From NCBI RefSeq assembly GCF_963921235.1, contig NC_086097.1, positions 38,194,001 through 38,258,000 on the forward strand: a stretch of DNA of 64,000 nt, in the 5' to 3' direction. Below the pieces are notes generated by a model. That model saw only the letters and a program-made list of their open reading frames with translations, did not search any database and was not told the DNA's origin. This DNA is from Mobula hypostoma. Its lineage: Eukaryota. Positions 3,854 to 45,534 of this stretch are shown piece by piece. The position numbers and the translations under genes were made by a program. The stretch's first letter is position 1. Every line of letters starts with the position of its first letter.

Positions 3854-4853
3854 TTTTCTACAAATTAGGTTCAAATATTACAGATTTTTTTACATTTTAA
3901 CAATAAATAATTCATGAAATATAATTTAAATATAAAAGCTAAGTACTTCTTCTAAAATAATATACAATTGTATTCAATTCTAAACTTGCTATTTATCATA
4001 GTGTTTCAAGAGTTCTTACTCAGGCTCTTAATTTTCTTCACCTTCCCTAACTGCATCACCTGCCTGTTGTCTTACACCCTTTCACAGTCCACCAATCACC
4101 TCCAAATCCTTTCTTGCCACTTCCCTTCTCCACTCGATGCTGGTCATCTTGCCTCTTCATTCAGTTCTGATGCAGAGTTTTGACTCCAAACATTGATAAG
4201 TTCCTTTCTTCCAGCTGGTGCTGCTTGACCTGCTGAGTTCCACCAGCACCGTATATTGGTCCTAATTTTTTTTAAAATCTATTTTCAGTCAACTCTCATG
4301 TCAGCTGGCCTCATTACCAATGTCTACAAGCTACTTTTCAAGGCAGTTGGGTTATGAGGATCAAGTGTATTAATCTTTTCTTCCCCATTGTACCTGACAG
4401 AGGGACAACATTTGAAAATTTCTACAGTACAACCCACTGAAATTACAGGAGACAGAAGAGACTGCAAGTGCTGGAAGCTGGAATATAAAACAAACTGCTG
4501 GAAGAACCCAGCAGGTCAGGTAGCATTTGTAGAGGGAAATGGAAAAATCAGCATTTTGAGACTATCCATTTCCTGCTATAAATGTTACCAGATCCATTGA
4601 GGTCCTCATTTTGCTCCAATGAAATTATAAATGCTTGTATAAAACATCACACACATACGCAATGAACTAGTTTGTTCTTCATTAATCTAGCCTTATTTTT
4701 TTCATTAATATGCACAGGATGATACAAGGTCACAGTAGACCCAAGGTAAAGAATATTTATAAAACACATTTACTGCAAGCAAATACAAAATTATGTAGCT
4801 TTCTTCTTAACAACATACAGATATCTCTAAAGGTCATTAGGAATTGATTACAG

Positions 4854-4970
4854 TTACAGCATAGCAAAGTGTTGCTGCAATTGTTTGATTAATTGTTGAG
4901 TGTCAACATGTTCTGGAAAAGCAGTTGCTGATTTCTGTGCAGCTACATAACTGCTCTGCAGGTCTCCAAC
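4854..4970 (-). CDS. TTC8: TTC8 last coding exon 14 (VGDLQSSYVAAQKSATAFPEHVDTQQLIKQLQQHFAML*)
   Basis: 117 nt, ttttccag| acceptor, TAA at 4856-4854. The 14 exons sum to 1518 nt = 505 aa. Confidence 0.97.
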   Translation of the reverse strand, partial: VGDLQSSYVAAQKSATAFPEHVDTQQLIKQLQQHFAML

Positions 4971-5334
4971 CTGGAAAAAAATAAACACACATTGATGTTT
5001 TGTAGTTCATCAATCAAATGGAACCAAACAGTTGTAGAGAACAACTTCAGACTGGCTGAATGTTTTGTTAAGCATCTCAACCCACTTAAAAGTACTTTTA
5101 GATCATATATTGATCATGCCTTTCCTAAGCATGTCTGCAATGGATGCAACTATTGCTTCTTAGCTTGTCATTTTGCCTTGCACCATCATTCTTGTCTTGT
5201 CAGTTAACATTTTTGTCTTGAACTTTCTACTCTATCAATGGACTGTATTTTTTTTACATTCTCCACCACTTGTTCGCTCAAGTGGAATGCGCCAATTCTT
5301 GCTTGGATATCATTAATAACTTTCTACTGGTAAT

Positions 5335-5648
5335 CATGTGGATAGTCAGAGGCTTCTTCCCAGAGCTGAAATGGCTAACATGAGAGGGCACAGTTTTAAG
5401 GTGCTTGGAAGTAGGTACAGAGGAAATGTCAGGGGTAAGTGTATGGAATGGACTGCCGGCGACGGTGGTGGAGGTGGATACGATAGGGTCTCTTAAGAGA
5501 CTCCTGGATAGGTACATGGAGCTTAGAAAAATAGAGGGCTACGTGTAACCCTAGATAATTTCTCAGTTAAGTACATGTTCGGTACAGCATTGTGGGCCGA
5601 AGGGCCTGTATTGTGCTGTAGGTTTTCTATGTTTCAATGTTTCTATGT
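5335..5648 (+). mobile_element. CR1 3' end
   Basis: Paralogous to 52660-52972; (TTTCTATG)n tail. Confidence 0.75.
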
Positions 5649-5774
5649 ATTTGCCCAAAGTGCTGTTCAGAAACAGAGTGACAGAAGATATAAAAAGCCA
5701 AATTGAACATTGTGGGTAAACCTAATATAAACCTCAAAAAGTCTCCATCAGTGCTTCAGCTAGTAAGAATATCT

Positions 5775-5979
5775 ACCCACAAACACAAAATAATCTGCAG
5801 ATGCTGGGGTCAAAGCAACACTCACAACATGCTGGAGGAACTCAGCAGGTCGGGCAGCATCCATGGAAAAGATCGGTCGACGTTTTGGGCCGGAACCCTT
5901 CATCAGGACTGAAATATTGACTGATCTTTTCCACGGATGCTGCCCGACCTGCTGAGTTCCTCCAGCGTGTTGTGAGTGG
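5775..5979. mobile_element. Fold-back PLE-derived element with 9-bp TSD
   Basis: Inverted arms ~5818-5884 and ~5912-5977. AGAATATCT at 5766-5774 and 5980-5988. Confidence 0.75.
5874..5911 (-). ncRNA. Hammerhead ribozyme motif with G12A core mutation
   Basis: CAGTC-CTGATGA-AGGGTTCCGGCCC-AAAAC-GTC-GACCG. Confidence 0.65.
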
Positions 5980-6247
5980 AGAATATCTGGCCATCTGCAA
6001 AGGCCCATTGACCAAGAATAAAACAAATATATAAGCAACTTAATTTAGAATGGAGCTACATAACTAATTTCAGATTACCAGAATTTCTGCTAATCAGTTC
6101 TATATTTATGATAATTCAATTTCAATTGTTGTCAGAAAATCTGAAATATCTATAATACCTACCAAAATGTATAAATATCTTGATGGTCACAAAATACCGT
6201 ACATATAGCTATTAAATATCTACAGAGTACTTTTTTATATTCATTAC

Positions 6248-6331
6248 CTTATCTGAAAGTGCAGCAAAATTATAATGCGGTTCATACATGTGAGGAGCCA
6301 ATGCTGCAGCTGTCTGCAGAAATCCCCGAGC
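6248..6331 (-). CDS. TTC8: TTC8 exon 13 (ARGFLQTAAALAPHMYEPHYNFAALSDK)
   Basis: 84 nt, ctgaag| and |gtaatg junctions. Confidence 0.95.
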
Positions 6332-6451
6332 CTTCAGATACAAGTAAAAAATTACAAACGTTTGTAGATACTTAGAAATAAATATACAGCTTATTTTCCA
6401 AGATAAAACAATATTTTTCCAATACATTACATGACAATACAAGCTGCTCAC

Positions 6452-6574
6452 CTGTTCATGGTGCCCTTTGCGCATTTCCAAGACTGCTAAATTGTTATAG
6501 GCTTCAGCATGATTATTGTTGTTGGCCAGTGCCAGTTTAAAACACTGATGGGCCAAATTCATATCTCCTATTCC
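6452..6574 (-). CDS. TTC8: TTC8 exon 12 (GIGDMNLAHQCFKLALANNNNHAEAYNNLAVLEMRKGHHEQ)
   Basis: 123 nt, ttttag| and |gtgagc junctions, TPR. Confidence 0.97.
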
Positions 6575-8029: not shown

Positions 8030-8225
8030 CCAACAACCCACCAATTTACTTTAGGACAATTTACAATGACCAATTAGCCTACAAACTGGTATGTCTTTTT
8101 GGGCTGTGGGAAGAAAGCAGAGCACCCGGAGGAAATCCACATGCACACAGGAAGAATGTACAAACTTTCTTACAGAGGATGCCAGAAATGAACTCCGAGC
8201 TGTAACAGCATTGTGCTAAACACAA
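8030..8225 (-). mobile_element. V-SINE/HE1-like SINE
   Basis: Reverse complement of the V-domain (gagcacccggaggaaatccacatgcacacaggaagaatgtacaaact). Confidence 0.65.
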
Positions 8226-9062: not shown

Positions 9063-10443
9063 AGTTTAGTTGGAAAGATATTGGAGTCAATCCTCAAGGA
9101 CGAGGTTATGAAATACCTCGAGGTGCATGACAAGATAGGCTGAAGCCAGCATGGTTTCATGAAGGGAAGATCCCGCCTCACCAACCTATTGGAATTTTTT
9201 GAGGTAATCTCGAATAAGATTGACAAGGGAGAGGCTGTGGATGTTGTGTATTTGGATTTTCAAAAGGCCTTCGATAAGGTGCCACATATGAGGCTGCTTA
9301 ATAAGATGAGAACCCATGGAATTATAGGAAAGATGTTGGAATGGGTGGAGCATTGGCTGACAGGCAGAAAGCAAAGGGTGGGAATAAAGGGATTCTATTC
9401 TGATTGGTTGCCGGTTACTAGTGGTGTTCCGCAGGGGTTGGTGTTGGGGCCGCTTCTTTTTACGATGTATATCGATGATTTGGATTATGGATTAAATGGT
9501 TTTGTGGCTAAGTTTGCGGATGACACCAAAATAAGTGGAGGAGCAGGAAATGTTGAAGAAACGGAAAGGTTGCAGAGAGACTTAGTTAGTTTAGGAGAGT
9601 GGGCAAAGAAATGGCAGATGAGATACAACGTTGACAAATGTACGGTTGTACATTTCAGAAGAAGAAATAATCGGGCAGATTATTATTTAGATGGGGAGAA
9701 AATTCAAAAATCGGAAGTGCAAAGGGACTTGGGGGTCCTCGTGCAGGATACCCTAAAGGTTAACCACCAAGCTGGATTGGCGGTAAGGAAAGCGAATGCT
9801 ATGTTGGCATTCATTTCAAGAGGAATAGTGTATAAGAGTAAAGAGGTGTTGATGAGGCTCTATGGGGCATTAGTGAGACTTCATTTGGAATACTGTGGGC
9901 AGTTTTGGGCCTCCTATCTTAGAAAGGATGTACTGATGTTGGAGAGAATTCAGAGAAGATTTACAAGGATGATTCCTGGAATGCAGGGGCTAACATACGA
10001 GGAGCGTTTGTCGGCTCTTGGATTGTATTCGTTAGACTATTGAAGAATGAGAGGGGATCTCATAGAAATGTTTCGAATGTTGAAAGGGTTGGACAGAGTA
10101 GATGTGGAAAGGTTGTTTCCCTTGGTGGGTGAGTCCAGGACAAGAGGCCATAGTCTTAGAATTAGAGGGTACCCAGTTAAAACAGAGATGAGGAGAAATT
10201 TTTTTAGCCAGGGGTCGTGGATTTGTGGAATTTGTTGCCACATACAGCTGTGGAGGCCCGATCATTGAGGGTGTTTAAGGAGGAGATTGACAGGTATCTA
10301 ATTCGTCAGGGTATCAAGGAATATGGGGAAAAAGCCGGAAATTGGAACTAGATGGGTGAATAGTTTAGCTCATGGAGGAGCTGCGGAGCAGACTCGATGG
10401 GCCGAATGGCCTACTTCTGCTCCTTTGTCTTGTGATCTTGTGA
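9063..10443 (+). mobile_element. 5'-truncated CR1-type LINE (RT C-terminal half plus 3'UTR)
   Basis: ORF 9159..10043 with YLDFQKAFDKVPH, GVPQG, KFADD; (TCTTGTGA)2 tail. Confidence 0.92.
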
Positions 10444-12088: not shown

Positions 12089-12544
12089 TGAAAAAAACTC
12101 ATCACAGGTAAATTTGGAATTCCATTATACTGCTGTATTTGTATGATGAATACAAACTTAATGCGTCACAGTTATTTAGGGCTTGTAATTAGTAGTGGAA
12201 GTGAATTTGGTTAATATATGCCAATCAATGTCTCAGCCAATAATTAGTAGTTAAAAATGTAGGATTTCATTGGTTTAGATTATGAAATTTTCCAGGAGTT
12301 GAAAAGGTGAAAAATGTAATTTTCCTACCTTTCCTTTATTTCTCTCACCCCCCAGTCTTTCTTTTCCTACACCCATTTATCTTTGTAATAACGGTTTGAC
12401 TTTAATTCTGCTCTTTCTCAGGCCTTTTTTGTGGTTGTTTCCTAATCCTCAAAGGAGATTCCTCAATGGTGAACTTGTTCTCTCAAGTCCTAGACACACA
12501 CATACACTTCCTTCATCGCTCACACTTTCACCAATTCTATAACC

Positions 12545-12612
12545 GTGTGTGTGTGTGTATATATATACATACACACACACACACACACACACAGATACAT
12601 ACACACACACAT
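12545..12612. repeat. Compound (GT)/(AT)/(AC) microsatellite in TTC8 intron 8
   Basis: Direct read. Confidence 0.9.
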
Positions 12613-12675
12613 CATACCGTACAGTGGTGGCTACATATTAAAAGATGGTAATTCACATGTACGTTAGCTGCTTAC

Positions 12676-13350: not shown

Positions 13351-13546
13351 GGAATAAACAGAAGAGATTCTGCAGACGCTGTTAATCCAGGGCAATCCAC
13401 ACAAAATACTGGAAGAACTCAGCAGGTCAGGCAGCATCTATCGATGGGTTCTGAAGAATAGTCTCGGCCCAAATCATCAACTGTTTATACTCCTCCACAG
13501 ATGCTGCCTGACCTGTTGAGTTCCTCCAGCATTTTGAGTGTGTTGT
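13351..13546. mobile_element. Fold-back PLE-derived element with imperfect 10-bp TSD
   Basis: Inverted arms ~13398-13440 and ~13498-13543. ATTAAATTGA/ATTAGATTGA flanks. Degenerate hammerhead at 13446-13483. Confidence 0.7.
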
Positions 13547-14413
13547 ATTAGATTGACTGATTAACCTGAATCAAGTTAGGCATGAGAAATAGCTGCAATG
13601 AACAGCTAAGATATTATTTAGATTTCACTTTTAAATTACCTAGAGTTTTCTTTAAATGTATTAATTGTTTTGTTTAAATATTTTTGTTTAAACTAAATAT
13701 TTTTGAAACTGTTTATATTTTAAAAAGTTTTTTCATAACTATGGGCAGAGATTGTTCTAGCCCATCTGTCTTCCATTGTGCAAGATTATTCCATTTATGA
13801 TCGGGACATTATGAACCAGCAAGCCAGTAGCAAGGAATGCATCAAACACACAGCCACATTTTCCTCCCATAGGCAAGTGGCTCGGTAACAGCAGCAAGTT
13901 CAATCCTTCTGAGCAAACAAAATTCCACAAACTGCACAGTCTCAGAGTTTGCTGGGCAGTATTAATGAAAACCAGATAGTACAATGGTTAACAGTAACAC
14001 AGTTCTCGTCGGAGAAAATAATTCATATATAACTGGCATTCATATTAATTAGTGATTTTCAAATTATTCCATCCACAAGGACAACAAGAATCGTAGCAGC
14101 ACTGTCAACAACTTCTAGATTAATCACAGAACCCATTTTTTTTACTTTTAGTGGCAAATTGAATTGTTTTGTCAATGCCCACAAGTGACTGGCCATAACA
14201 AGAATCTCCAACCATAACTGGGCAACGTCAGCGGTTGCTCTGTGTTTTGCATTGCAATAGTGATGTGCGTTCACCTTCATGGTTTGTACTACTGGGCTAA
14301 TATTTTCTGCATTATTAATCTGAAAGTATTGAACGTAACAACGAAATGTTACAATAAATCTGTGGTCAATAACAAAAATCTTTAATAAAATCAACGCAAA
14401 TCTAGCTCCTTAC

Positions 14414-14649: not shown

Positions 14650-15430
14650 GTAGATGAAAGTGGTGTCACAGGTAGACATGGTGGTGAAAAAAGCATTTAG
14701 CACACTGGTGTTCGTCAATCAGGACACTGAATATGGTATTTGGGACATTATATTGCAGTTGTACAAGTCGTTAGAGACGTATTTAAACTGGTAAGACTGC
14801 AGAAATTATTTACGAGGATGTTACCAAGACTAGAGGGTCTGAGTTATAGGGAGAGGTTGGTAAGGTTAGGTAGTTATTTCTTAGAACATGGGAGAATTAA
14901 AAAAGTCTTCTTCACTCAGTAGAGGAGTCCAAAACTAGGGGAACAGGTTTAGGGTGAGAAGGGAAAGATTTAAAAAGGGCCTGGCAAGCAAGATTTTCTT
15001 TCTTTTTCTTTATTAATCTTTTTATTGAATTAAAAGGAACATAAATACAAACAAGAGGAGAATTATCTCAGATATACATATCAATAACAATACCAACCGA
15101 GATTGATATAGACATTATCTACAAACACCGTATGTAGTGTTCAGCTGGTATATAATATGTAAAAACAGCAATTCTCCTCTTGTCAGTTCATAAGCAAGAT
15201 TTTCACAAAGAGAGTGGTGAGTAAATGGAATGAGCTGCCAAAAAAAGTGTTTGAATTTAAAAAGTGACTGTACATTTAAGATACTCTTGAATAGGTACAT
15301 AAAGGAAAGGGGCTTAGAAGAGTATGGGCTGAATACAGGAAATGGGACTAGCTGGGTGGAAACTGTGGTCAGCATGCACTTGTTTGGCTGAAGAACCTGT
15401 ATCCATGCTATATTGCTTTATGGACTCTAA
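14650..15430 (+). mobile_element. CR1 3' fragment with an AT-rich insert (~14995-15190)
   Basis: FTRMLPRLEGLSYRERL; typical 3'UTR. Confidence 0.7.
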
Positions 15431-20147: not shown

Positions 20148-21542
20148 CTGAAAGTAAAACAAATATTCTTCAGAGATATCTGTAAAAATCAGTTCAAAAA
20201 TCCCAATACTGTTTCATCAGCTGTTGTAGGTAAATTGCATCTTTATACATAGTGACAAAATTAAAAAAGGTGACTTTTGTACACAGACTCAATAGATTCT
20301 GCAGATGCTCAAAGTCTTGATGAAGGGTCTCAGCCCAAAACATCAACTCTTCATTTCCCTTCAGAGATGGTGTCTGGCTTGCTGAGGTTCTCATTTTAGT
20401 ACATTACTGATTACAAATACATCAAACCAATGCAAATATGTTAAAGGCAGTAAAGTATGAACAATGAATATTCTTAACCTGTAAAAGAAAGAGGTATCAT
20501 ATCCCATTTGAGAAACTTGACTACCTAAGTTGGGACATCTGTGTATGATGCCCTCCAGGTAAAGTGGTCAAGCAATAGATTGCAAATGTTTTTTTAAAAT
20601 ATATAATGCTAAACAATCCATTTCCCACCCATGTCTGCTTCACAACTTTGCCAGATCAATTCAATATCAATTCTTTTATCATACTTACTCCACGGCTTCG
20701 TGATAAATATTTACATTTTTTCCCATATAAATCCCTCTGTTGAGGGATCGTCAACAAGGTCCACACAGGTTTCCTTATTTATTCTTCTAGCTCCTCTATT
20801 AAATTGTCATTGAGTTTACTGTCATGTGCTACAGTAGGATGAGGGACATGTACTGTGAAAAACTTGCAGCACTTTCATAAGCTGAATTGCATTGGTCTAC
20901 ATCAAACACTACCTATGGTAAATTACTTCATGTCCAGCAATTTTATCCAATGAATTTTCTCATTGTTTTTCCCATTTTCAGTAACAATTTTAAATTGGTA
21001 AGTCCTCACAATAACGTTTAAACAAAAAAAAATCCCTTATTTACATGTTTTTAAAAAATTGCTTCAGTAGAAGCTTCAATCTTCTTTCAAAATAGTGGTA
21101 GCTTACCTCTAATCAGACTTAGGGATCAGTACTTTGGTGTTTTAAGTTGTTTTTACAATATAATAGTAATTCAAAATTGAGCACAGCATTACATTTCTGT
21201 ATGACAATCAGTGTCAAGGAAAGCCCAGAATGATTTTCAAATAGATTTGTTCATCATTCAAAGAAATCTACAGATGGGTTCTGTTCCTCCATTATCTTTC
21301 TTTTCAATTCCCCCATTGTGTGTACTCTCCCACTCCTTTCATTTCACCTCAAAAGAATCATCTTATACTTCATTTAAATTGATTACATATTTTGCTAATC
21401 TGTTGTTTTTCTTCTAAATGAGTTTAAGTCTGATTCACTGCTTGCCAAATATCCTATATATTGCCATCTGTAAGTTTCAGTCCTAAGATCTGATTGAACG
21501 TTTTAAAAAGTTATCAGCTAAGCTGGTTACTGAAGTACTTAC

Positions 21543-23100: not shown

Positions 23101-25289
23101 AATATTTGGGCAAGTCAGGGTTCTCATGAACGTTAGAGAATATCTGGTCAACAAAGGTATTTAGAGAAAGAAAGACTGGGAGAAAATTGAAATAAAAACT
23201 AGAAGATGAGGGTTGTTAGAGAGTTGAATGCTGTTTTAATTTACAAGCCCACTCTAATCTATCTCTCTATAGCTCCCTCAGTGTTAAAACGAGACCCAAA
23301 ATAATTAAGCTAAAGCACTTCATTTACTGTTTGGGCATGTTGTAGCCTTCCAAACTCAAAACCCAATCTATTTTTTACTTCTGAAATGTAGAAAAGATCA
23401 CTTGGTGAACATTGTGTATACCACAGTAAATTGGAACAAGTCTTTATCAATAGCTGTCTCATTTGAAATAACTGCTTGGGACCCTGGATAGAGGCAAGTG
23501 AAGAGGTGAAAGTACAGGTATGGTATTTCTTGCTGTTGCATAGGAGAGTGCAATAAGTCCTTCCTCCACTGGACCATTTGAAAGCCTTCTTCTCAATGCA
23601 TTTACTAAATAAAACTAGCAATAATACTTATTAAATCTTCAATACTTATTTCCCATGGCATCAATACAACAGCTGACTGAAGTAAATTTTGGTTAAGGAA
23701 AAAAGGTTCAAAGGTTTATTTTATTGGCAAAGTATGCATTTACAATACAACTCTGATATCCGTCTTCTCCAGATAGCCATGAAATACAGAAAAACCATGG
23801 GAATTGTTGAAAAGAAAAGCCATCACCTCCCCCAACACAAAAAAGAAAAAGAAACAAAATTTGCAAACCCTAATACCACTGCCCCCCTCCTTCGCACAAA
23901 AAAACTAAGGAATCGCCCAGACCCACAAAACCCAAAGACCCAACCCCCTCCCTAAGTGACGATAACATCAAAACCCAGCCCGCTCCCTCACCGAAATAAA
24001 AGCGGCAATAGCATCAAATTCTCAGCCCCGTCCTCACTGAAAAGAACAGCAACGATAGCATCAAAACCCCCAGCCCCCATCTCACAAACAGGAACAGATT
24101 CGCCCACATAGAAAAACACCAACAGGATAATCAGACCCCAAATCCCCAACTTATCCCTCGCATAAAAAGTAACATATCACACACCGCCAATCAGCAACAA
24201 GAAAGAAAAGCACCGAAAACTTAAGGAAATCACTAATCACACAAATCTCAGAATATCGAAAACATCTTTCTGTCAGCTTTCAAGGAGTGTGGCTGCACCA
24301 ACTCAGTCCTTCCATGAAGAGCGACTGCCACGCCAGGTCCGAACGCAAATGCTGCCGACCCAGCCACTGAGCCCGTGGTCTCTGTTCAGATCAACTGCTG
24401 ACCTCCTCCGCATTCACCTCAATGCTTCAATCTTCCTCGCCACTTCGAGATGTCGTCATTCATGACCCCACGTCCTGTCTCTGGTCTTTTCCATGAGTTA
24501 GCTCGTGGCCTCAATACTTTTCAGGTCCCCGTCTCTGGTCTTCTCCACGAGGCAGCTCTCCAGCCACAGCAGAGCACTAGATCATTCGATCGAATTTCAA
24601 ACTGCACATCACAGGTACATGGCATTAACACAATCCAGTCAAAAAAAAAACAAGCAGAAGACATACAGAAAGTGGAAGAATCGAAGAGGTTGGCTATCCA
24701 GAAGATGTTGTCCGAAGAATTGTCGTTCACTGGTGCCATCTTGACCGGAGGTCAAGCACATTAAAGAATGGTGCAAAACGGGGTCAGAAATGGCCAGGAA
24801 ATAAGTTGGATGCAGTGCAAAACATTTTCAAAACAAAACCAAAAATCTTTTACTTCAAAGAAAACCTTCCTCAATGAGCAATGCTTGAGCTTGTCCACTA
24901 TTATTCATCAAGTGTATACTTAACTGACTTTCAGAATCACTTATTATTTCCAAACCAAAAGATTTTTATTTTGCAAGGATTTCATAGCTACAGGACGAAG
25001 GAAAAATGTGGGAAAGGATGTTGGGGAATCTAGTTTTGTGAGATTTATTTTTACCTCAGTTAGAATGGTTTTAATTTCACTTTCCTTGGCAAGCATGAAA
25101 AAGAAATTCAACAAATATCACTTTAAATATTACGTAGAACTGTTATAATACAGCACAATCAATTATCATACGAGATGAAAATTCAATATCTTTTCCTCAT
25201 AGAATATTGAAAACCACTAATTAGTATTTTTTGCCTTGCCCGCAAGTTATTGCGCCTAGTAGCAGGTTATGATTGTTATAAGATACTCA

Positions 25290-26030
25290 TGGGATCTTAC
25301 CCATACAAGAGGGTAGTGGTGAGAGGTTTTTTATTCTGGATAGAGGTTTGCAGAGTTGGTGAGTAAATCTGTAGATAACACAACATTGTAGCATTGTGAG
25401 TTACATGGATGATTGCCAAAGAATACAGTGACAGATGTATCAGCTGCAAATATCGGCAGATAAGTGGCAGATGTACTTTAATGGTTACACCACATTTAGA
25501 GTACTGTGTTCAATTCTGGTTACCTCATTATAGGAAGGATATGACTTTGGAGAGGGTGGCAGAAGTGGTTGAGCAGGATGTTGTGTGGTTTGCTGGGCAC
25601 ATGCTATGAGCAGAGATTGGACATGCTGGGCCTATTTCTCTAGAGCAGCAGAGGTCAAAAGGAGATTTGATAGTAGCTTATAGGGGCATAGATAAACTGC
25701 CAGTATCTTTTTCCTAGGACAGGAATGTCTGATATTAGAGGACATACATTTGTAAGGGCGGGGGGGGGGGGGAAGTACAAAGGAGATGTGATGTTTTTAA
25801 AACACAGAGAAGTGGGGACCTGGAATGCACTGCCAGGAGTGGTGATATGAGAGGCAGACAGAAATATTTAAGAAACTCTTGATAGACACGTGAACATGCA
25901 GAGAAGGGAAGGATATGGTCAATGTACAGGTAAGAGGGATTAGATTAATGCGAAGTCATTGGTTGAATTACTTTGGCACACCATCATGAGCCATAGGGCC
26001 TGTCCTGTACTGTATTATTCCATATTGAAT
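25290..26030 (+). mobile_element. Decayed CR1 3' fragment
   Basis: PHLEYCVQFWLPHYRKD. Confidence 0.75.
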
Positions 26031-26399: not shown

Positions 26400-26865
26400 C
26401 CGAGACTCTTCTTCAGGACTGAGAAGGAGAAAGATGCTAGAATAAAAAGTGGGGGGAGGGGAAGAATAGTTGGAAGATGATAGGTGAAGCCAGTTGGGTG
26501 GGAAAGGTCAAGGTCTAGAGAAGAAGGAATCTGATAGGAGAGCAGAGTGGACCATAGGAGAAAGGGAAGGAGGAGAGGACCCACCCAGGGGAAAGTGATA
26601 GGCAGGTGAGAAGAGGTACAAGGTCAGAATGCGGAATAGAGGAAGGGGGTGGAATTTTTTTTAACTAGAGGGAGAAATCAATATTCATGCCATCAGGTTG
26701 GAGCCTACTCAGACAGAATATAAGGTGTTGCTCCACCGCCCTGAAGGAGGCCTCATCTTGTCACAAGAGGAGTCCATGGGGCGACATGTTGCAATTGGAA
26801 TTAACATGTTTGGCCACCAGGAAGTTCCACTTATGGCAGATGGAACAGGTATGCTCGACAAAACA
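26400..26865 (-). mobile_element. Penelope-like element 3' fragment with 5' half of a hammerhead
   Basis: FVEHTCSICHKWNFLVAKHVNSNCNMSPHGLLL*QDEASFRAVEQHLIFCLSRLQPDGMNIDF, then UTR, then CAGTC-CTGAAGA-AGAGTCTCGG. Confidence 0.8.
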
Positions 26866-28704: not shown

Positions 28705-29549
28705 ATGTCTCAAGTTTCTAAAAAACCACCTGGATGTTCTACAATGCTTCTGGGACAATGTTCTATGGACAGATGAGACAAATATATATTGTTATGTTTG
28801 GAAGAAAAAGGGCACCGCACACTAACACCAAAACCTCATCCCAACTGTGAAGCATGGTGGAAGGAGCATCATGGTTTGGGGCTGCTTTGCTTCCTCAGGG
28901 CCTGAACAGCTTGCAATTGTCCAGGGAACAATGAATTCAAAATTGTATCAAGTCATTTTACTGGAGAATGTCAGGGTAGTAGTCTGTCAGCTGAAGCTTA
29001 ATAGGAGTTGGCTAATGCAACAAGACAATGATCTGAAAGACAAGAGTATATCAATAGAATGGATAAAAAAGAAGAAAATTCATGTCTTGGAACGGCTACA
29101 TCAAGGTCCTGACCTTAGCCCTATAGGAATGTTGTGGAAGGACCTGAAGCAAGCAGTTCATGCAAGGGAGCCCACTGACATCCCACAGTTGAAGCAGTTT
29201 TGTAAGGAGGAATGGCCTAAAATTCCTCCAAGCCGACGTGCAGGACTGATCAACAGTTAAGGAAAACATTTGGACATTTAGTTAGTTATTGCTGTACTGT
29301 GGGGGGGGGGCAGGGGGGGGCGGTGTCACACCAGTTACTGAAAGCAAAGGTCCACATACTTTTTCCAAAAAATACATGTAATATTTCTCAATGAAAAAAT
29401 GCACAAGTATTATGTTTTTGTGTTATTTATTTAATTGGATTCTCTTCATCTAGTTTTAGGACTTATATGAAGATCTGATCACATTTTAGGTCATTTCTAT
29501 GGAAAAATAGAGAAAATTCGACAGGGTTCAAAAACTTCCTAGCACCACT
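28705..29549 (+). mobile_element. Tc1-like transposon, right half
   Basis: WTDET, KHGGRSIMVWGCF, QQDND, PDLSPI in ORFs 28580..28825 and 28847..29260; TIR-like end ...tagcaccact. Confidence 0.85.
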
Positions 29550-31058
29550 CGGCCCGAAACATTGACTGAACATTTCTCCATAGATGCTGCCTGGCCTGCT
29601 GAGATCCTCCAGCATTTTGTGTGTGTTGCTTGGATTTCCAACATCGGCAGATTTTCTCATTTGCCACTGGATAGAGAGGTAGCTACACCCAAGCTGCAGG
29701 ATACAGGAAGCTGGGTGACAGTCAGCAAGGGGAAAGGGATTAAGGAGCCAGTGCAGAATACCCCTGTGGCTATCCCCTCAACAACAGGTATATCACTTTG
29801 GATGCTGTTGTGACGGAGGGGAGGTGGGTGGGAGATGGCAGGACGACCCAGCAGAGGAAAATCACAGCAGTCAAGTCTCTGGCACCTGAGTCTGACATTA
29901 CGATTCAGAAGAGAAGGTGGGAGAAGAGTCGAGCTGTGGTGATGCAGGATTCGTTAGTTAGGGGAACAGAAAGGCAGGTCTGTAGACAAGAACAAGATTC
30001 CCGGATGGTATGTTGTCTCCCGGGCGCCAGGGTCCAGGACATCTCAGATTGAGTCCTCAGTATTCATAAGTGAGAGGGTGAACAGAGTCATAGTCCACGT
30101 AGGTGCCAATGACATGGGTAGGATGAGTGACGAGGTTCTGCGAGGGGAGTTCAGGGAGTTAGGTGCTAAGTCAAAGGGCAGGACCTCCAGAGTTGTGACC
30201 TCAGAATTGCCAATTGTGTCACTTGCTAGTGAGCCAGAAATAGGAAGATTATACAACTTAACACATGGCTAAGGAATTGGTGTAAGAGGTAGGGCGTAAG
30301 ATTTTTGGACCATTGGATCCTCTTCCAGTGAAGGTGGGTCTTGTTAAAACTAGAGTTGCAAGGGGAATGGGAGGTTGAGAGGTTGTGGACAGATGTTGTT
30401 AAGACCACAGACAGGAACCAAAAAGTTGATCAAGGTGTAACTAATGTCCTGACGTGAATATATTTCAATGCAAGAAGTATCACAGAAAAGGCAGATGAGC
30501 TCAGGCATAGATCAACACCTGGAATTATGAGATTGTAGCCATTAGTAAGACCTTGGTTGCAGGAGGGGGAGGACCAGCAGCTCAATATTCCGGGGTTCAG
30601 ATGCAACAGAGTGGGAGGGACTAAAGGAGGAAGGGTGGCATTAATAGTCAGGGAAAATGTCACAGCAGTGCTCAGTCAGGACAGACTGGAGAACTCGTCT
30701 ATTGAGGTGTTATGGGTGGAACTGAGAAATAAGAAAGGTATGACCATGTTAACGGGGCTATATTACAGACCACCCAACAGTCCGAGGGATTTAGAGGAAC
30801 AAATTTGCAGAGAGATCACAGACAGCTGCAAGAAGCATAAGGTTGTTATGGTAGGTGATTTTAACTTTCCACATATTGACTGGGACTCTCAAACTGTAAA
30901 AGGACTAGATAGTATAGAATTTGTCAAATATATTCGGGAAAGTTTCCTTAATCAGTATATAGAAGTCCCAACATGAGACTGTGCGATACTTGATCTACTA
31001 TTAGGGAATGAGACAGAGCAAGTGACAGAGGTTTGCGTAGGGGAACACTTTGCATCTC

Positions 31059-31785
31059 AGAATCAGAATCAGCTTTATTATCATGGCATGTGACATGAAA
31101 TTTGTTAACTTAGCAGCAGCAGTTCAATGCAATACATAATCTAGCAGAGAGAAAAAAATAAAATAAAAAATAATAATAAACAAACAAGTAAATCAATTAC
31201 ATATGTTGAATAGAATAAAAAATGTGCAAAAACAGTAATACGGTATATAAAAAAAAAGTGAGGTAGTGTTCAAAACTTCAATGTCCATTTAGCAATCAGA
31301 TGGCAGGGGGGAAGAAGCTGTTCCTGAATCGCTGAGTGTGTGCCTTCAGGCTTTCGTACCTGCTTCCTGATGGTAACTGTGAGAAAAGGGAATGCTCTGG
31401 GTGCTGGAGGTCCTTAATAATGGACACTGTCTTTCTGAAAAACCGCTCCCTGAAGACGTCCTGGGTTCTTTGTCGGCTAGTGCTCAAGATGGAGCTGACT
31501 AGATTTACAACCTTCCGCAGCTTCTTTCGGTCCTGTACTGTAGCCCCTCCACACCAGACAGTGATGCAGCCTGTCAAAATGCTCTCCACAGTACAACTAT
31601 AAAAGTTTTTGAGTGTATTTGTTGACATGCTTAATCTCTTCAAACTCCTAATAAAGTATAGCTGCTGTCTTGCCTTCTTTATAACTACATCAATATGTTG
31701 GGACCAGATTAGATCCTCAGAGATCTTGACACCCAGGAACTTGAAGCTGCTCACTCTCTCCACTTCTGATCCCTCTATGAGGATC
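31059..31785 (-). mobile_element. Rex1/Babar LINE 3' fragment nested in CR1
   Basis: VSSFKFLGVKISEDLIWSQHIDVVIKKARQQLYF...RFRNSFFP; (CTGATT)n tail at 31059-31072. Confidence 0.85.
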
Positions 31786-34700
31786 CCTCTCATGATCACA
31801 ATGCCATTAATCAAAGGAGGTATGCAAAAAGATAGGTCTGGTCCATGGGTTGAGATTCTAAATTGGAGAAAGGCCAATTTTGAGGGCATCAGAAAGGATC
31901 TGGCAAGTGTGGATTCTGAGTGGCTCTTTTCTGGCAAAAGTGTACTTGGAAAGTGGGAGGCCTTCAAAAGTGAAATTTTGAGAATACAAAGCTAATAAAT
32001 GCCTGTCAGAATAAAAAGTAAAGAAAACAGGTGTAGGGAACCTTCATTTTCAAGCGGTATTGAGGTCCTGGTTAAGAAAACAAAGGAGGTGCACAGAAAC
32101 TATAGGAACAAATGGGGTGCTTATAGAGTATAAGAAATGCAAGAGAACATTGGGAGGTCTAAAAGAAGGCATGAGGTTGCCCTAGCAGACAAGGTGAAGG
32201 AGTATCCTAAGGGATTCTACAGATATTAAGAGCAAGAGGATTGCAAGAGACAAAATTGATCCTCTGGAAGATCAGAAAGATAATCTATGTGCAGAGCCAA
32301 AAGAGATGGGGGAGATTTTAAATAAATTTTTTGCATCTTTATTTATTTAAGAGATGGACACAGTCTATAGACGTGAGGCATCATCTTCATGGACCCTATA
32401 CGGATTACAGAGGTGGTGGTGTTTGCTGTTCTGAAGCAAATAAGGGTGGATAAATCCCCAGGGACTGACAAGGTGTTCCCTCGGACCCTGCGGGAGACAA
32501 ATTGCCAGGGCCCTAGCAGAGATACTTAATTTCTCCATAGCGACAGGTGAGGTACCAGAGGATTGGAGGATAGCCAATGTTGTTCTCAAGAAATTATCTG
32601 CTGGTGAGCCTGACATCAGTAGTGGGAAAGTTATTGGAAGGTATTCTGAGAGACCGGATATATAAGTATTTGGATAGACATGGACTGATTAAGGATAGTC
32701 AGCATGGCTTCGTGCCTGGTAGGTCATGTCTAACTAATCCTGTCCAGTATTCGAGTAAGTTATCAGGAAAGTTGATGAAGGCAAGGCAGTGGATGTTATC
32801 TACATAGCCTTTAGTAAGGCACTTGACAAGGTCCCACATGGGAGGTTGGTCAAGAAGGTTCAGTCACTCAGTATTCAAGATGAGTTAATAAATTGGTCTA
32901 GAAATTCGCTTTGTGGGAGAGGCCAGAAAGTAGTAGTAGATGGTTGCCTCTCCAACTGGAGGCCTGTAACCAGTGGCGTGCCGCAGAAATCGGTGTTGGG
33001 TCTGTTGTTGTTTGTCATCTATATCGATGATCTGGATGATAATGTGGTTAACTGGATCAGCAAATTTGCAGATGATACTGAGATGGGGGTGTAGTGGATG
33101 GTGAGGAATGCTATCATAGATTGCAGCAGGATCTAGTCCAGCTGGAAAAATGGCAGATGGAATTTAATGCAGACAAGTGTGAGGTGATGCACTTTGGTAG
33201 GACCAACCAGGATAGGTCTTACAGAGTGAACGGTAGGTCACTGAGGAGTGTGGTAGAACAAAGGGATCTGGTCCATAACTTATTGAAAGTGGCATCACTG
33301 GTAAATGGAGTCGCAAAGAAAGCATTTGGTACATTGGCCTTCATAAATCACTTTATAGGAGATGGAATGTTATGCTGAAGTTGTACAAAACACTGGTGAG
33401 TCCTAATTTGGAGTATTGTGTGCAGTTCTGGCCTCCTACCTCCAGGAAAGATGTAAATAAGGTTGAAGGAGTACAGAGAAAATTTACAAAGATGTTGCTA
33501 GGTCTGGAGTTATAAGGAAAGATTGAATAGGTTAGGTCTTTATTCCTTGAACCGTAGAAGATTGAGAGGACATTTGATAGAGGTATACAAAATTATGAGG
33601 GGTATAGATAGGGTAAATGCAAGCAGGCTTTTTCTACTGAAGTTGGGTGGGACTCCAACCAGAGGCCATGAGTTAAGGGTGAAAGAAAAAATGTTTAAGG
33701 GAAACACGAAGGGAAACTTCTTTACTCAGAGGGTTGTGAGAGTATGGAACGAGCTGCTAGCACAAGCGGTGCATGCAAGCTCGACTTCAACATTAAACAG
33801 AAGTTTAGATAGTAGGGAATGGAGGGCTACGGTCCCTGTGCTGGTTGATGGGAGTGGGCAAAATGGTTCAGAATGGACTAGATGGGCCAAAGGGCCTGGT
33901 TCTGCACTGTACTTTCCTATAATTCTATGGAAAGTATCCTGCCCAGATTTGGTACCTGGCTGAGTCCTAAAGACCTGTACTAATCAACTGGCGGGAGTGT
34001 TTACTGTTATCTTTAACCTTTCACTTTGGCCGCCTGGGATACCCATCTGCTTCAAGCAAGTTTCAATTATAAGGGTGCCTAAAAAGAATGTGGTAACCTG
34101 TCTCAATGACTGTCATTCAGTAGCACTTGCATCCATTGTGATTAAGTGCTTTGAGAGGATAATGATGAAACACATTAACTTCTGCCTGTGAAACAACTTG
34201 GATCTGTTTCAATTTGCTGACTGTCACAACAGGTCAACTGCAGATGCCATTTCATTGGCTCTTTACTCAAACCTAGAACATCTGGAGAGTGAAGATGCAT
34301 ACATCAGTGTGCTCCTCATTAACTGCAGCTCAGTATTCAATACCATCATTTCTCCAAAACGAATATATAAGCTCCAAGACCAAGGCCTCAACACCTTCTT
34401 GTGCAACTGGATCCTTGACCAGTTGGTTCAGGTTAGCAACAAAACTTCCTCCGCAATTACCATCAGCGCAGGTGCACCATAAGGCTGTGTGCTTAGCCCC
34501 TGTTCTCCTCAGTTTATACTTATGACTTTGAAGCTAAGCACAGCTCCAATGCCATATTTAAGTTTGCTGACAACACCGCTTTCGTTGGCCGAATCAAAGG
34601 TGGTGATAGATCGGCAAGACCAAGGATCTGATTATTGACTACAGGAGGAGGAAACCAGAGGTCTATGAGCCAGTCATCATTGGAGGATCAGAAACTTCAA

Positions 34701-34812
34701 ATTCCTCAGTTTTTGAGGATCTGTCCTGCAACCAGCACCTAAGTGTCATTACAAGGAAAGCATGGCAGCACCTCTGCTTTCTTAGAAGTTTGCTAAGATT
34801 TGATATGTCATT

Positions 34813-35010
34813 TGGCACGGTGGCATTATGGTAGCACACCGCTTTACTGTACCAGTGACCCAGGTTCAACTCCAGCCACTGCCTGTAAGGAATTTTTGTA
34901 CATTCTCCCTGTGACCGCAAGGGTTTCCTCAGGGTGCTCCAGTTTTCTCTCATAATCCAAAGACCTAGCGGTTGGTAGGTTAATTTGTAAATTGTCCCAT
35001 GATTAGGTTA
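34813..35010 (+). mobile_element. V-SINE/HE1-like SINE nested in Rex1
   Basis: Same head and V-domain (gggtttcctcagggtgctccagtttt..tccaaagac). Confidence 0.7.
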
Positions 35011-35618
35011 GGACCTCATTAAAAAAGTAAAAACTTCAACAAAATTATATAATGTGTGGTGAGAAGCATATTGACTGGTTGTATCACAGCCTGGTTTGGA
35101 TACACGAATGCCCCTAAATAGAAATACAGACAAATAATAGTGGATATTACCCAGTCCATCATGGATAAAGCCCTCCCCACCATTGAGCACCTCTACATGG
35201 AGCACAATTGCAGGAAAGCAACATCTGTCTTCAAGAAGTCCCACCTTCCAGGCCTTATTGCTGCTGTCACCAAGAAGGGGGTACAGAAGCCTCAAGACCC
35301 ACAGTTTCAGGTTCAGTAACAGTTATTACCTGTCAACCATCAGGCTCTTGAAACAGTGGGCAAGATTTCACTGACCTTCATGCACCCCGTCACTGAACTG
35401 TTCCCACAATCTTTGGATTCACTTTCAATGACTCGTCAATATTCTCAATATTTATTGCTCTCTTTGTATTTACAGTTTGTAATCTTTTGCACATTGGTGT
35501 TTGTCCGTCTTGTTGGGTGCAGTCTTTCATTGATTCTATAGTGTTTCTTTGTATTGATTCTGAATGCCTGCAAGAAAATGAATCTCAGGGTTGTATATGA
35601 TGACATATACTGTCTGTA

Positions 35619-37643: not shown

Positions 37644-38774
37644 TGAGTCAAACTTCCTAACATCAGCCCTAAACCTTTCATTATATAGAAACTTTACTAT
37701 TGTTGTATTGCTGATACCTACATCCATGTAATATTCTAGATTTTCTTTTACTACCTAACATTTCTCAAAGGTAACTCCCAAATGGTTCTTTGTGAGGTTG
37801 AAGCCCAGACTTCCTTCCAGTAATTTCTTAAAGCTCATTTTCCACTCAACAATCACTTTATTTGTTTCATTAACCCCTTATTAAACATAACTCCACTATT
37901 CCCCTGCATCTCTTCCAATTTCCACACTGTTACTTCATGCTCATTGGGGAATTACCTGTAATCCTACTCCCATTTCTTATCTTCATGCAACACTTCAAAA
38001 GAAGTGGCTATGTCTTCTGCTGCCAAGCCACCAAGCTCAAGAATCCCATCTTTTAATTTCTTAATTTCTTTTCCTTCCTCTATTTCACTCATTTAGAAAC
38101 CACCACAGCCCAACACTCCGAACAAGCTTTCAGCTTCCTGAGAGATGTGGCCTGATACCTTTCTGTACAAATTGGTGCTAAATTTGTTCCCTAACAATTC
38201 AAAAATCAGTCAAAAGTCAAAGTAAAATTTATTATCAGAGTACATACATGTCACCACGTACAACCCTGAGATTATTTTTCCTTGAACCCCTTTTGGGTAT
38301 CCTGCTACAAAAGATGCCACAAATTTTCTCTTCCCTTTTAAAAAAAACACTGTTGAAAGATGTCAATGGTCTACAATGGTGAGTGTTTAAAATCTAATTT
38401 CTCTAATCTCCTTTAGCTAAATTATTCCTCATACCTCTGAAATCTGAAATTAGTTTAGAACTCCAATTTCCAACTTCAGCGTGTTACCCTAAAGCTCACT
38501 GTACCATTCTATTAAACCACCAATTACTTCTCCATCATTCCCATTCCAAAGGATCACTGACTATGAGATTATGAATTAACCCTGTCTCAATACATTGAAA
38601 TAATCCAATATTCCCATTTTCTTATGAGATATTATCAGGAAATTCTCCTGAACACAATATACCAAATGATTTTCCAGAATTCTTATGCCAACTTTATCAA
38701 GGTATCTAAAACATCATGGTGCTCTAGAAGAACATTTCCCACCAATTCTATAGAGAAAATGCCAGGAACACTAC

Positions 38775-39260
38775 GAATCCAACAACACACAAAACGCTGG
38801 AGGAACTCAGGAGGCCAGGCAGCATCTATGGAAAAAAAAAGTAAGTCAATGTTTTGGGCCGAGACCTTTCGGCAGGAATGGAGAAAAAGAAGGTGAGTAG
38901 ATTGAAAAGGTTGGGGGAGTGGGGGGGGGGAAGAAGAGAAACAAAAGGTGATAGGCGAAACTGGGGGGGAGGAGGGATAAAGATAAGAGCTGGGAAGGTG
39001 ATTGGTGAAAGAGATACAGGGCTGGAGAAGGGAGTGTCCGATAGGAGACAATAGAAGGCCATGGAAGAAAGGAAAGGGAGAAGGAGCACCAGAGGGAGGC
39101 GATGGGTGGGCAAGGAGATAAAGTGAGAGAGGGAAAAGGAGATGGGGAATGGTGAAGGGGGGAGGGTCTTTACCATAAGTTCTAAAAATTGATGTTCATG
39201 CCATCCGGTTGGAGGATACCCAGATGGAATACAAGGTTTGTTCCTCCAACCTGAGTGATA
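38775..39260 (-). mobile_element. Penelope-like element 3' end (EN tail, UTR, degenerate hammerhead, terminal repeat)
   Basis: LRLEEQ/LVFHLGILQPDGMNINF, hammerhead remnant at 38843-38880, shared terminal sequence gctggaggaactcag. Confidence 0.8.
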
Positions 39261-40450
39261 TTTCAATGCTTCAAGTCAATAACCTTAATCATAACATTGT
39301 TCTTTTCTGGTGAGTGTTGTAGAATTTTTCTCCTTTTTGCTCAATCTTCCAGGATCTGAAGTTTATTTTTAGTAAAAAAAATGCTTTGATTAGATACCAA
39401 TTACTGTTCTTCAACAATGTTATATGAAATTAGCCAACTATATCTACTTTAACAAATCAATTTATTGTAGATTTAGTCTGACTTTTAAAAACATTGCCCT
39501 GTCTATAAACTGAAAATAACACAGCCTTAACCTAAAAACTATACTTCCAAAGTTCATAGTCAATATAGTTAACTGCCTGTAAAAAGGCATGGCAAATCAC
39601 CCAGTTCAGGGCAATTAGAAATAAGCATTTTCTCTTTGTTTTGTCCTTTTCAAGAAATGCCAACAGCCTGTGAATAAATAAATTAAAACATATTTTCATC
39701 TTTTCAAGATTGCCTCTTTATTCAGAAATTAGGCATTGAATTGACAATACTCAACAATTCCATGACTTTCAAGTTCAGCAGAGGAATAAAATTCAAGTCA
39801 TTCCATTCATTACCCTAACCAATTGCCATGTAATGACTGTATACTTACATTAAGTGATTTATTAAGAAAAACATTTTAATAACTTATGAAATACAACATA
39901 GTACAAGTGAGAATTAAACATACAAAGGAATAAATTGGAGAAATAATTGATTTCTAAAAGTTATAAAATTTGAGTAACTGACCTTTAACAAAATAATTAC
40001 TTGCACAAAGTATAATGTTTAAATTAGTAACTAACCCAGTTTAAATTAGATAATTTTTGATTTGAGGATGTTATCGTTACTTCGCAAAGGAACAGCAGCA
40101 CCGTGTAAGCATAACATGACCGCTTCATAAGTGACAATTGATACGTGTTACTTAACAGAACAACGGTAGTGTGTATACTACTTAGAAGGCGAATGAAGGA
40201 TAGAAATTTATAGTCTGATCGTCCATTTGTAAGGAGACGTCTGTAAAAAGTTCTGAGATTCTTGTATAAAACGACATATCGTTGTATTTCAAATAATTAC
40301 TACGCAGGAAACACTTGACATTCCTGAATGTTAATCGATCAGCTGTACTTGCGCGCAATTTTCGAAATATCGATTACAGAAACAGAAAATATTCTTTGCT
40401 GTGAATTATAAAGCAATCCTGAATCACAACAAACGGTGGTCTCTCTCTAC

Positions 40451-40564
40451 CTGGTCATACGCGTTTTCCTCCAGGAGCTGCGTACAGATATCAGCGCACA
40501 ACTGGAACTTCCGCCTCCTGAAATAACTCCAGGCCAAGAACATGGGATCCATATCCAAACCCAT
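40451..40564 (-). CDS. TTC8: TTC8/BBS8 coding exon 1 (MGLDMDPMFLAWSYFRRRKFQLCADICTQLLEENAYDQ)
   Basis: Manual translation matches the BBS8 N-terminus (AWSYFRRRKFQLCAD). ATG at 40564-40562, 114 nt, donor CAG|GTAGAG. Confidence 0.97.
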
Positions 40565-40627
40565 CTTAATCCGACAGAATCGCTACCTCAGACAGCGGGA
40601 CCGAATGGCGGCCGGTGCGTTCCTGCC

Positions 40628-40642
40628 GTCACTCCCAGCAAC
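40628..40642. promoter_or_regulatory. RFX X-box-like motif GTCACT-CCC-AGCAAC upstream of TTC8
   Basis: Fits GTNRCN-N(0-3)-RGYAAC, 64 bp from the ATG. BBS genes are established RFX targets. Confidence 0.6.
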
Positions 40643-40791
40643 GCATCCTTGGGTCTTCACAGCTGCCATGGTGTCCCCGCAACCGCCTGACAAACAAGCA
40701 AAGAGTAAGTGCAGTGCCATTCGTGAGAAAATATGGTCATCGTGATAAATCACGCGATAACTTACCCCTTTTGCTTCATAATTATATCTCA

Positions 40792-40803
40792 GTCGTTGGC
40801 AAC
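40792..40803. promoter_or_regulatory. Second X-box-like motif GTCGTT-GGCAAC
   Basis: Perfect GGCAAC half-site plus a degenerate left half. Confidence 0.45.
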
Positions 40804-41243
40804 AAAAGAAACATAGCCATGCTTACGACCTTCAACTGCTTTTGTTTGCTGCCAATCATCCTGTCAAGAAACAATGATCATTCATTAACCTAAGCTGTAC
40901 ACATTTGCACGATGTATTTTAAAATAAATATCAACAAAAATGTAATATTATCGATTAGTAGCACAATTGTTCAAGTAATATTACTTTCAAGCATCAATGT
41001 TAAGATACGTTTTATAAATAGCCATGGTTATATAACGACCGGAGGAACTATCTTTCAGCATCACCGTGTTCTTTTCCAATATACAGTATTTTGTGGTAAT
41101 TTAGGGTTAATATGATGTTTTAGCAACGAAAGAAAATAAATCATGTATGTTATAAGTTTTGCATATGCTGGAAGTCCACACACACACACACACACCTCTG
41201 AAGGAACTCAGCAGATTAGGTAACATCTTTGGAAATGAATAAA

Positions 41244-41281
41244 CAGTTGACGTTTCAAGCCGCGACCCTTCTTCAGGACTG
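41244..41281 (-). ncRNA. Minimal type-I hammerhead ribozyme motif, catalytic core intact, within PLE terminal fragment 41160-41282
   Basis: CAGTC-CTGAAGA-AGGGTCGCGGCTT-GAAAC-GTC-AACTG: CUGANGA, GAAA, GUC cleavage triplet, palindromic ACGT stem III. Stems I and II are weakened. Confidence 0.65.

Positions 41282-45482: not shown

Positions 45483-45534
<52 letters not shown>

Follow-up and report, generated by a model that had tools for sequence, protein, structure and literature searches.

Minimal hammerhead motifs in the terminal repeat of a likely Neptune-clade Penelope-like element of Mobula hypostoma, and a proposed route for its insertion

Minimal hammerhead ribozymes (min-HHRs), described in Xena, Poseidon and Neptune elements of fish, lie in the pseudo-long terminal repeat (pLTR) of Penelope-like elements (PLEs), where they combine CUGANGA and GAAA boxes with an extra base between positions 9 and 10.1, a short stem I and a loopless palindromic stem III, occur mostly as solo copies from truncated elements, and cleave weakly in vitro (PMC4209133). 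What the hammerhead does in endonuclease-bearing PLEs is still unclear (PMC8557442). In PAc, a Poseidon element from Anolis carolinensis, hammerhead cleavage needed protein, insertion in vitro did not require the hammerhead and gave no reads at the cut site, both DNA strands were cut and extended, and two internal start sites of the reverse transcriptase (RT) bounded a tail (PMC11167929). Here we examine a 64,000-nucleotide stretch of the Mobula hypostoma genome (the window; assembly GCF_963921235.1, contig NC_086097.1, positions 38,194,001 to 38,258,000), in which an earlier reading of the letters alone (the sequence-only reading) had noticed a recurrent 38-nt motif and ascribed it to a high-copy, ribozyme-bearing PLE. 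Judged by its sequence, the motif is indeed a minimal type I hammerhead in a PLE pLTR, a kind published in 2014 (PMC4209133).

The motif class and its link to PLEs have thus been known since 2014, and what the Mobula family adds is scale and testability: near-intact young elements, a lineage whose core change is known to slow other hammerheads, and thousands of sharp junctions make the role of cleavage testable on natural variants, and a two-start-site mechanism is likewise testable on natural junctions. We consider it highly probable that the hammerhead sits in the terminal repeat of a likely Neptune-clade PLE whose copies in the window are truncated, mutated and likely inactive, and that new copies would arise by the insertion route proposed below.

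The hammerhead motif and its parent element

Core positions are given in the usual hammerhead numbering. The anatomy assigned by the sequence-only reading held up, since the core boxes, the extra base before stem II, the palindrome at 15.2-16.2 and, outside the youngest lineage, the G10.1-C11.1 pair are arranged as in published min-HHRs (PMC4209133). The single consensus that it had proposed stood only in part: the CUGANGA and GAAA boxes and the stems are present, but the window copies fall into several subfamilies. Among the majority sequences of five subfamilies, with CpG decay allowed, the core C3 U4 G5 A6 N7 G8 A9, G12 A13 A14, A15.1-U16.1 and H17 is found in four, whereas the extra A between 9 and 10.1 and the ACGU palindrome are found in all five (with CpG decay in old copies); the majorities differ at N7, loop II, 2.5, 1.4, 11.1 and 6. 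Structural evidence came from related elements in metagenomes, of which an alignment scan returned 80 loci, 40 of them with at least 150 nt after the open reading frame (ORF); a scan of metagenome contigs with a single protein, unlike the alignment scan, gave no matches. Nine of the 40 loci carry the hammerhead architecture 93-192 nt after the ORF, compared with none in reversed sequence, and these nine motifs (seven distinct) show two-sided changes in stems I and II, a palindromic stem III in eight cases, and A6 in all nine. This covariation of the stems across related elements is independent structural support for the predicted hammerhead fold. The G10.1-C11.1 pair is present in four Mobula subfamilies and in 9/9 metagenome motifs, the youngest Mobula lineage having U11.1 instead.

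The parent element was recovered from the 3.48-Gb genome with an RT frame that was found in the locus fetched with the copy at window position 38843 and then used as a query. The search gave 144 scored matches, mostly of 98-99% identity, and 20 long loci whose open frames reach 1,058 codons and close with the C-terminus noted by the sequence-only reading; at least one hammerhead motif is present in 19 of these 20 loci. In a tandem trimer found at one locus (periods 3516 and 3514 nt), the motif lies ~300 nt past the stop codon and 167 nt ahead of the likely ATG of the next unit. The 1,016-residue young ORF contains YIDD at 662, a CX4CX2C linker at 883, GVIY at 919, CxxC at 923 and YIGET at 933, so that two cysteines lie between GVIY and YIG; together with downstream histidines, recognized by eye in the translation, they place the domain in the CCHH group. 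Pfam matches of this ORF to RVT_1 (E 5e-5) and GIY-YIG (E 8e-4) each fall short of the gathering cut-off, while among aligned homologs 19/21 match RVT_1 and 17/21 match GIY-YIG. The closest named homologs are two Chiloscyllium punctatum proteins (73% and 69% identity), and a PDB sequence search with the ORF returned nothing at E<=0.1. The proposal of a ribozyme-bearing PLE was thereby borne out: RT and a GIY-YIG endonuclease at the C-terminus are encoded in a single ORF, with the motif in the pLTR.

The element is likely a member of the Neptune clade, as a CX2-5CxxC linker between RT and endonuclease occurs in Neptune and Nematis and is absent from Penelope and Poseidon (PMC8557442), and a preprint classed vertebrate PLEs only as Neptune or Poseidon (10.64898/2026.07.22.740005); Nematis is set aside by host range only. 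Like the endonuclease-bearing Neptune elements (PMC8557442), the Mobula PLE has a single ORF with RT, this linker and a GIY-YIG domain with two cysteines between GIY and YIG, and it shares with them pLTRs in partial tandems, 5' copies in inverted orientation and, at one end, a tail of 30-40 bp (here, tandem pLTR units, inverted 5' copies and a tail of ~35 nt on one arm). It differs from them in its clear target-site duplications of ~13 bp, and the sampled junctions, inspected by eye, gave no sign of microsatellite targeting.

That the family is present in high copy, as the sequence-only reading had supposed, was evident from 46,512 near-exact genome matches to a 34-base pattern; a CpG-tolerant pattern with A6 gave 82,326 matches and the young segment downstream of the motif 77,266, and the reversed control of each of the three gave none. 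We counted terminal-repeat pieces in 70 tiles of 10 kb, spaced evenly over large contigs (700 kb in all): there were 145, and 100 of them extend across the motif. A strict descriptor for intact hammerheads found 17 sites in these tiles, all of this PLE family, and none in reversed sequence. Scaled to the genome, these counts correspond to ~500,000 relics (404,000-604,000) and ~84,000 intact motifs (49,000-135,000), the ranges being Poisson intervals that ignore clustering, and at least 4.1% of sampled bases match one young unit. By comparison, ~4,000 motifs were reported in coelacanth and 9,000 in Xenopus tropicalis (PMC4209133), so the Mobula genome is far denser, and its density per base is several times that of axolotl, for which the retrozyme literature gives 126,247 canonical motifs in 28 Gb (PMC7229834; 10.64898/2026.07.22.740005); the descriptors differ, and both comparisons are rough. 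Neither sharks nor rays appear among the min-HHRs of the PMC4209133 supplement file that was searched, although other supplements may list cases from cartilaginous fish, and in a literature search combining hammerhead ribozyme with chondrichthyan names the ribozyme term was absent from the matches listed. A further search, on Penelope or Neptune elements in cartilaginous fish, returned a paper on protein fossils.

Insertion junctions and a proposed insertion route

Junctions were analyzed in a sample of 164 young copies, drawn from 110 loci within the first 5.5 Mb of contig C1, with positions counted from core base C3 = 0, so that the predicted cut lies between +27 and +28. The 3' ends form two groups, at +82 to +101 and at +116 to +127, with the two fixed ends 35 nt apart, and they fit the tail that a pair of internal RT start sites delimits in the Anolis element (PMC11167929). 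All 26 head-to-head inverted pairs in the sample have exactly one tailed arm (chance ~1e-8), 21 of the 26 are flanked by duplications of 11-17 bp (control maximum 8), and the internal junctions of the pairs differ from one another; both inverted insertions in the window also follow the one-tail rule. A one-sided tail had already been described qualitatively (PMC8557442). A simple fold-back of one cDNA predicts arms with equal 3' ends, which differ in 26/26 pairs, so the strict one-tail pairing argues against this origin and for priming at both DNA ends. The Mobula element thus resembles PAc in its two internal start sites bounding the tail and in the apparent cutting and extension of both strands, but it belongs to another clade, its ORF likely begins at an ATG 167 nt after C3, whereas the PAc ORF starts inside the hammerhead, and each inverted pair uses one site of each kind, whereas the PAc start sites showed no strand preference in vitro (PMC11167929). 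A literature search for Penelope-like elements together with twin priming returned nothing beyond a review of human elements.

The 5' ends are spread continuously between +46 and positions beyond -1,400. Copies mostly span the cut site and only 2/163 start exactly there (a third such start, an artefact of a locus edge, was discarded), so no cleavage footprint was found at +28. Among 87 copies selected for their tail, 5' ends occur at 0.017 per nt between 0 and -19, about three times the 0.005-0.006 on either side, some ends being mis-mapped by a few bases at inverted junctions.

These observations are consistent with an insertion route in which the endonuclease of the element would make a staggered cut and RT would prime inside the RNA at two sites, ~+93 and +128 from C3, each DNA end using one of the two in inverted events. 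RT would then copy uncleaved RNA through the hammerhead and often stop at the front edge of the motif, which would be either the start of the RNA or the point at which the hairpin halts synthesis. The motif of the parent element would probably cleave weakly, as a dimer or with the help of a protein, and full hammerhead activity would probably not be required for insertion.

Several points weigh against this reading. The motif was lacking in 31/40 metagenome loci under the descriptor used, and the five subfamily majorities of the Mobula genome show no two-sided stem change among them. When the young subfamily is compared with the A6C subfamily, identity is 84% in the motif, 76% in the 60 nt that follow it and 65% in the upstream pLTR; with the 60 nt after the motif conserved as well, protein binding or priming may account for some of the conservation. 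Rfam reported no hammerhead in an intact young copy at E<=10. Cleavage and expression of the motif are predictions, cleavage as a dimer is a hypothesis from the literature, and the clade placement is based on the linker motif. The junctions come from 5.5 Mb of a single contig; possession of a whole motif was the criterion for choosing 31 of the 110 loci, a bias against copies that start at the cut site, and head-to-head pairs whose arms join beyond ~-154 were missed.

Further features of the junctions are recorded here as observations. In L169, L134 and L111 and at window positions 20295-20311, seemingly solo copies are preceded by ~6-50 nt of inverted tail, so inverted two-arm insertions are probably undercounted. 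After the motif of L065 (5370-5460, minus strand), a predicted nested hairpin (z -1.2) covers the two 3' end points, both of which follow a TGTT-like motif; this is a candidate RT-binding or priming structure. The young pLTR also carries, at -25 to -2 (e.g., L065 5503-5526, minus strand), a branch-point-like motif, a pyrimidine tract and an AG just before stem I, and in Drosophila virilis Penelope an intron ends at the corresponding place (PMC4209133). A 3' splice site at the motif front is nevertheless not supported, because copies ending there have no upstream exon in common (by eye), and no spliced copy was recognized among the sampled junctions. Two short insertions on contig C1, L106 (near 170,474) and L162 (near 2,960,845), agree in their 5' flank and in their 5' end (+36), pointing to duplication of a segment or to an insertion that travelled within another mobile element.

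Core variants and competing roles for the motif

The relatives of the window copy at 38843 revealed a lineage with an altered core. C6 is present in 25/28 of the closest relatives of copy 38843 (two identical duplicates dropped), so the A6 that hammerheads otherwise carry is replaced in this subfamily, which is ~8% diverged outside CpG compared with 2% in the young lineage. Random decay of A6 was rejected as the origin of this variant, because genome pattern matches number 2,094 for C6 and 456 for T6, and because, in a tree of 150 copies, a single group of 41 contains 37/39 C6 rows (support 89/78, bootstrap not settled); of the 222 rows available for this tree, 72 that carry A6 and C7 had been left out at random. 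The C6 of copy 38843 is therefore inherited from its subfamily rather than a product of decay. All 29 loci of A6C relatives contain ORF sequence (the query included the ORF end), and nine C6 copies in the tiles correspond to ~45,000 genome-wide (95% 20,000-85,000). The predicted fold of a natural C6 copy has stems I and II only. A6C slows other hammerheads in Mg2+ (for one published ribozyme at 0.3 mM, kobs drops from 0.3 per min to 3.6e-6 per min), and the natural A6C hammerhead of phage Bcep176 is likewise slower in Mg2+ and favors Mn2+ (PMC3088659; PMC7151607); that case is a single phage motif, whereas the Mobula variant, known from sequence alone, is a vertebrate retrotransposon lineage many thousands strong.

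The youngest lineage carries a second departure from published min-HHRs, with G10.1-U11.1 replacing the conserved G-C pair (U11.1 in 58/61 copies); in the tree the change arises within the ladder of subfamilies of this lineage. The youngest monomer is predicted to fold with its core trapped in a rod (-11.0 vs -7.0 kcal/mol). A hammerhead with G10.1 and U11.1 had no match in the literature searched, which excludes most subscription papers. A second fairly young subfamily (L287-L310), the relatives of the window copy at 5874 and 95-99% identical to it, combines a UCCG loop with an A-C mismatch in place of the fourth stem I pair in 24/24 copies, and most pieces of its ORF show 74-84% identity to the main young ORF. 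The history of the family suggests that efficient self-cutting may not be needed for spread. A stronger combined claim, which we advance tentatively and hold to be possible rather than probable, is that the RNA starts at the 5' strand of stem I, that uncut RNA is the template, that insertion is two-ended with different start sites, and that cleavage is dispensable in vivo, the A6C and G10.1-U11.1 lineages having each reached tens of thousands of copies. If it were true, the genome would hold a natural mutational record, half a million copies deep, of the role of PLE hammerheads.

The chief competitor holds that the motif is an essential processing ribozyme in vivo, paired motifs within tandem or pLTR-ORF-pLTR transcripts cutting out a unit-length or circular template RNA and the variant cores being active enough with protein, a model put forward in PMC4209133. 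We judge it doubtful but a serious contender. C3, U4, G5, G8, A9, G12, A13, A14, A15.1, U16.1, C17 and ACGU are constant in the five subfamily majorities when CpG decay is allowed, the stems covary across related elements, tandem units exist, and the Anolis motif cleaves when protein is present (PMC11167929). A re-ligated circle would moreover yield copies spanning the cut site. Against the model stand the missing pile-up of 5' ends at the cut site (2/163), the ~45,000 copies of the A6C lineage, given that A6C slows other hammerheads in Mg2+, and the ribozyme-dead Anolis mutants, whose insertion in vitro was unaffected (PMC11167929). An outright chance resemblance of a repeat end to a hammerhead would account for the missing Rfam match and for monomer folding z-scores near 0, but we regard it as already refuted and its probability as close to nil: the 17 strict-descriptor sites in 700 kb all belong to one family and none occurs in reversed sequence, compensatory stem changes occur at the same position in related elements, and the features of published min-HHRs are present.

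The pile-up of 5' ends at the front edge of the motif could also mark a transcription start, with the 5' strand of stem I as an initiator rather than a ribozyme stem, which we think unlikely. Initiators follow a YYANWYY-type consensus that this strand resembles, and 1,676 exact young motifs have a purine, not the templated T, just before the A at -4; an internal promoter is described in the D. virilis element, and the core of the youngest monomer is predicted to be paired away, at the energies given above. The cap-derived extra G that such a start would leave is weak, with 24/47 vs 20/60 local copies (Fisher p 0.05) and, genome-wide, 46/100 and 53/100 of the listed G-or-A matches against 42% expected (hand counts; p 0.25 and 0.02), and purine-rich inverted arms could explain the excess; many copies also reach far upstream of the site, and the catalytic core is kept across distant relatives. 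Very improbable, and largely refuted, is the notion that the short copies form a separate, self-replicating non-autonomous ribozyme family resembling short interspersed elements, miniature inverted-repeat transposable elements or retrozymes. Window copies are mostly 80-200 bp, two are hairpin-shaped, and a preprint derives animal retrozymes from PLE pLTRs (10.64898/2026.07.22.740005); non-LTR retrozymes do share with the Mobula copies a type I hammerhead related to PLE pLTRs and a very high copy number (PMC7229834; 10.64898/2026.07.22.740005). Those retrozymes, however, are short non-coding tandem repeats with a loop on helix III, whereas the Mobula copies are dispersed ends of an ORF-bearing element: in the window, where this was searched, they are dispersed or inverted and tied to ORF remnants, with no short tandem arrays of the motif. 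Their 5' ends are continuous from +46 to beyond -1,400, the junctions of inverted pairs are not alike, and relatives of the tested window copies lie in loci with PLE ORF sequence in 29/29, 24/24, 24/24 and 19/24 cases, only the last being independent since the first three queries included the ORF end.

Motif copies and other repeats in the window

All six 38-nt sites and three half sites listed by the sequence-only reading were correct in coordinates and strand. Its core pattern, with up to three mismatches, matched the window twice and 100 shuffles not at all. A profile built from related copies recognized 12 pLTR-end pieces in the window; reversed control tiles totalling 700 kb gave no match. 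The 12 pieces are the nine listed sites, the inverted second arms at 5906-5982 (plus) and 13391-13446 (minus), and an unlisted piece at 4490-4559 (minus). The GIY-YIG C-termini claimed for three copies were recovered by tblastn with the natural young ORF, in 455-930 (match at 714-896, minus, E 4e-15), 26400-26865 (26671-26862, minus, E 2e-12) and 38775-39260 (39176-39238, minus, E 0.002), and the pLTR of the first does end at a trace of the CUGANGA box, the only vestige of the motif that had been claimed for it. The remnants are as follows.

465-896, minus: PLE remnant with the GIY-YIG end of the ORF (714-896) and pLTR, cut off at the CUGANGA trace; oldest subfamily sampled.
4161-4254, plus: heavily decayed hammerhead motif (4162-4199; A9>C, G12>C) with the pLTR end downstream.
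4446-4559, minus: unlisted pLTR end with the 3' part of the motif, the downstream hairpin region and the tail (profile match 4490-4559; tail limit by eye).
5775-5979, both strands: head-to-head inverted insertion; minus arm from 5913 to ~5775, tailed and containing motif 5874-5911 (G12>A), and tailless plus arm at 5906-5978; exact 9-bp target-site duplication (5766-5774 and 5980-5988).
13355-13548, both strands: head-to-head inverted insertion; tailless plus arm with decayed motif 13446-13483, minus arm beginning after the motif and with tail (left limit by eye); no target-site duplication recovered.
20312-20392, plus: short pLTR end from stem I onward (C3>U, G12>A), with a short piece of inverted tail ahead of it.
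23319-23549, minus: unlisted ORF remnant with the zinc-finger linker and the start of GIY-YIG (residues 880-954 of the young ORF; tblastn E 2e-10), no pLTR match by profile.
26400-26862, minus: ORF end and pLTR, broken within the motif (5' half 26400-26421); subfamily with N7 = A.
29548-29660, plus: 3' half of the motif (from loop II), pLTR end and tail.
38776-39257, minus: ORF end and whole tailless pLTR; motif 38843-38880 of the A6C subfamily, also G12>A.
41150-41283, minus: short pLTR end; motif 41244-41281 with all core bases kept and the first stem I pair lost (left limit by eye).
41471-41581, minus: pLTR end beginning in stem III of the motif, with tail.

Most of these copies are 80-200 bp long, and two are hairpin-shaped, one with a flanking duplication. 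An invariant core base is altered in five of the six full motifs; G12 is changed in all five (G>A in four), with further changes at A9, A15.1, C3 or A6, and the copy at 41244, the sole full motif with an intact core, has lost the first pair of stem I. No site in the window passes the strict descriptor for an intact hammerhead. The window has 39% G+C, and its CpG content, at 0.27 of expectation, explains most of the decay, in agreement with the remark of the sequence-only reading that deviations are often CpG transitions: the core changes are mostly G12>A at CpG. The window copies are thus likely 5'-truncated, mutated fossil insertions without activity. The Rfam scan that had been proposed as a check detected no hammerhead in the window at E<=5, and because Rfam misses the motif and so large a share of the sampled bases matches a young unit, the family matters for annotation. 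The decayed pLTR end at 4446-4559 (minus) converges on the copy at 4162, ~190 bp away.

The window contains repeats of other kinds. A TG/TA/CA microsatellite at 12523-12616 folds into a hairpin and has sub-threshold Rfam microRNA matches, likely a simple-repeat artefact. One large repeat family is present in several related copies (9198-10442, 14785-15239, 25482-25834, 32592-33566, 51606-52798, 54199-54977 and 63551-63975), which look like RT and 3' end fragments of a CR1/L2-type long interspersed nuclear element. A second dispersed family, with direct and inverted copies of 74-93% identity at 31302-31783, 34497-35608, 44438-47869, 57655-58208 and 62552-62795, is probably another non-LTR element.

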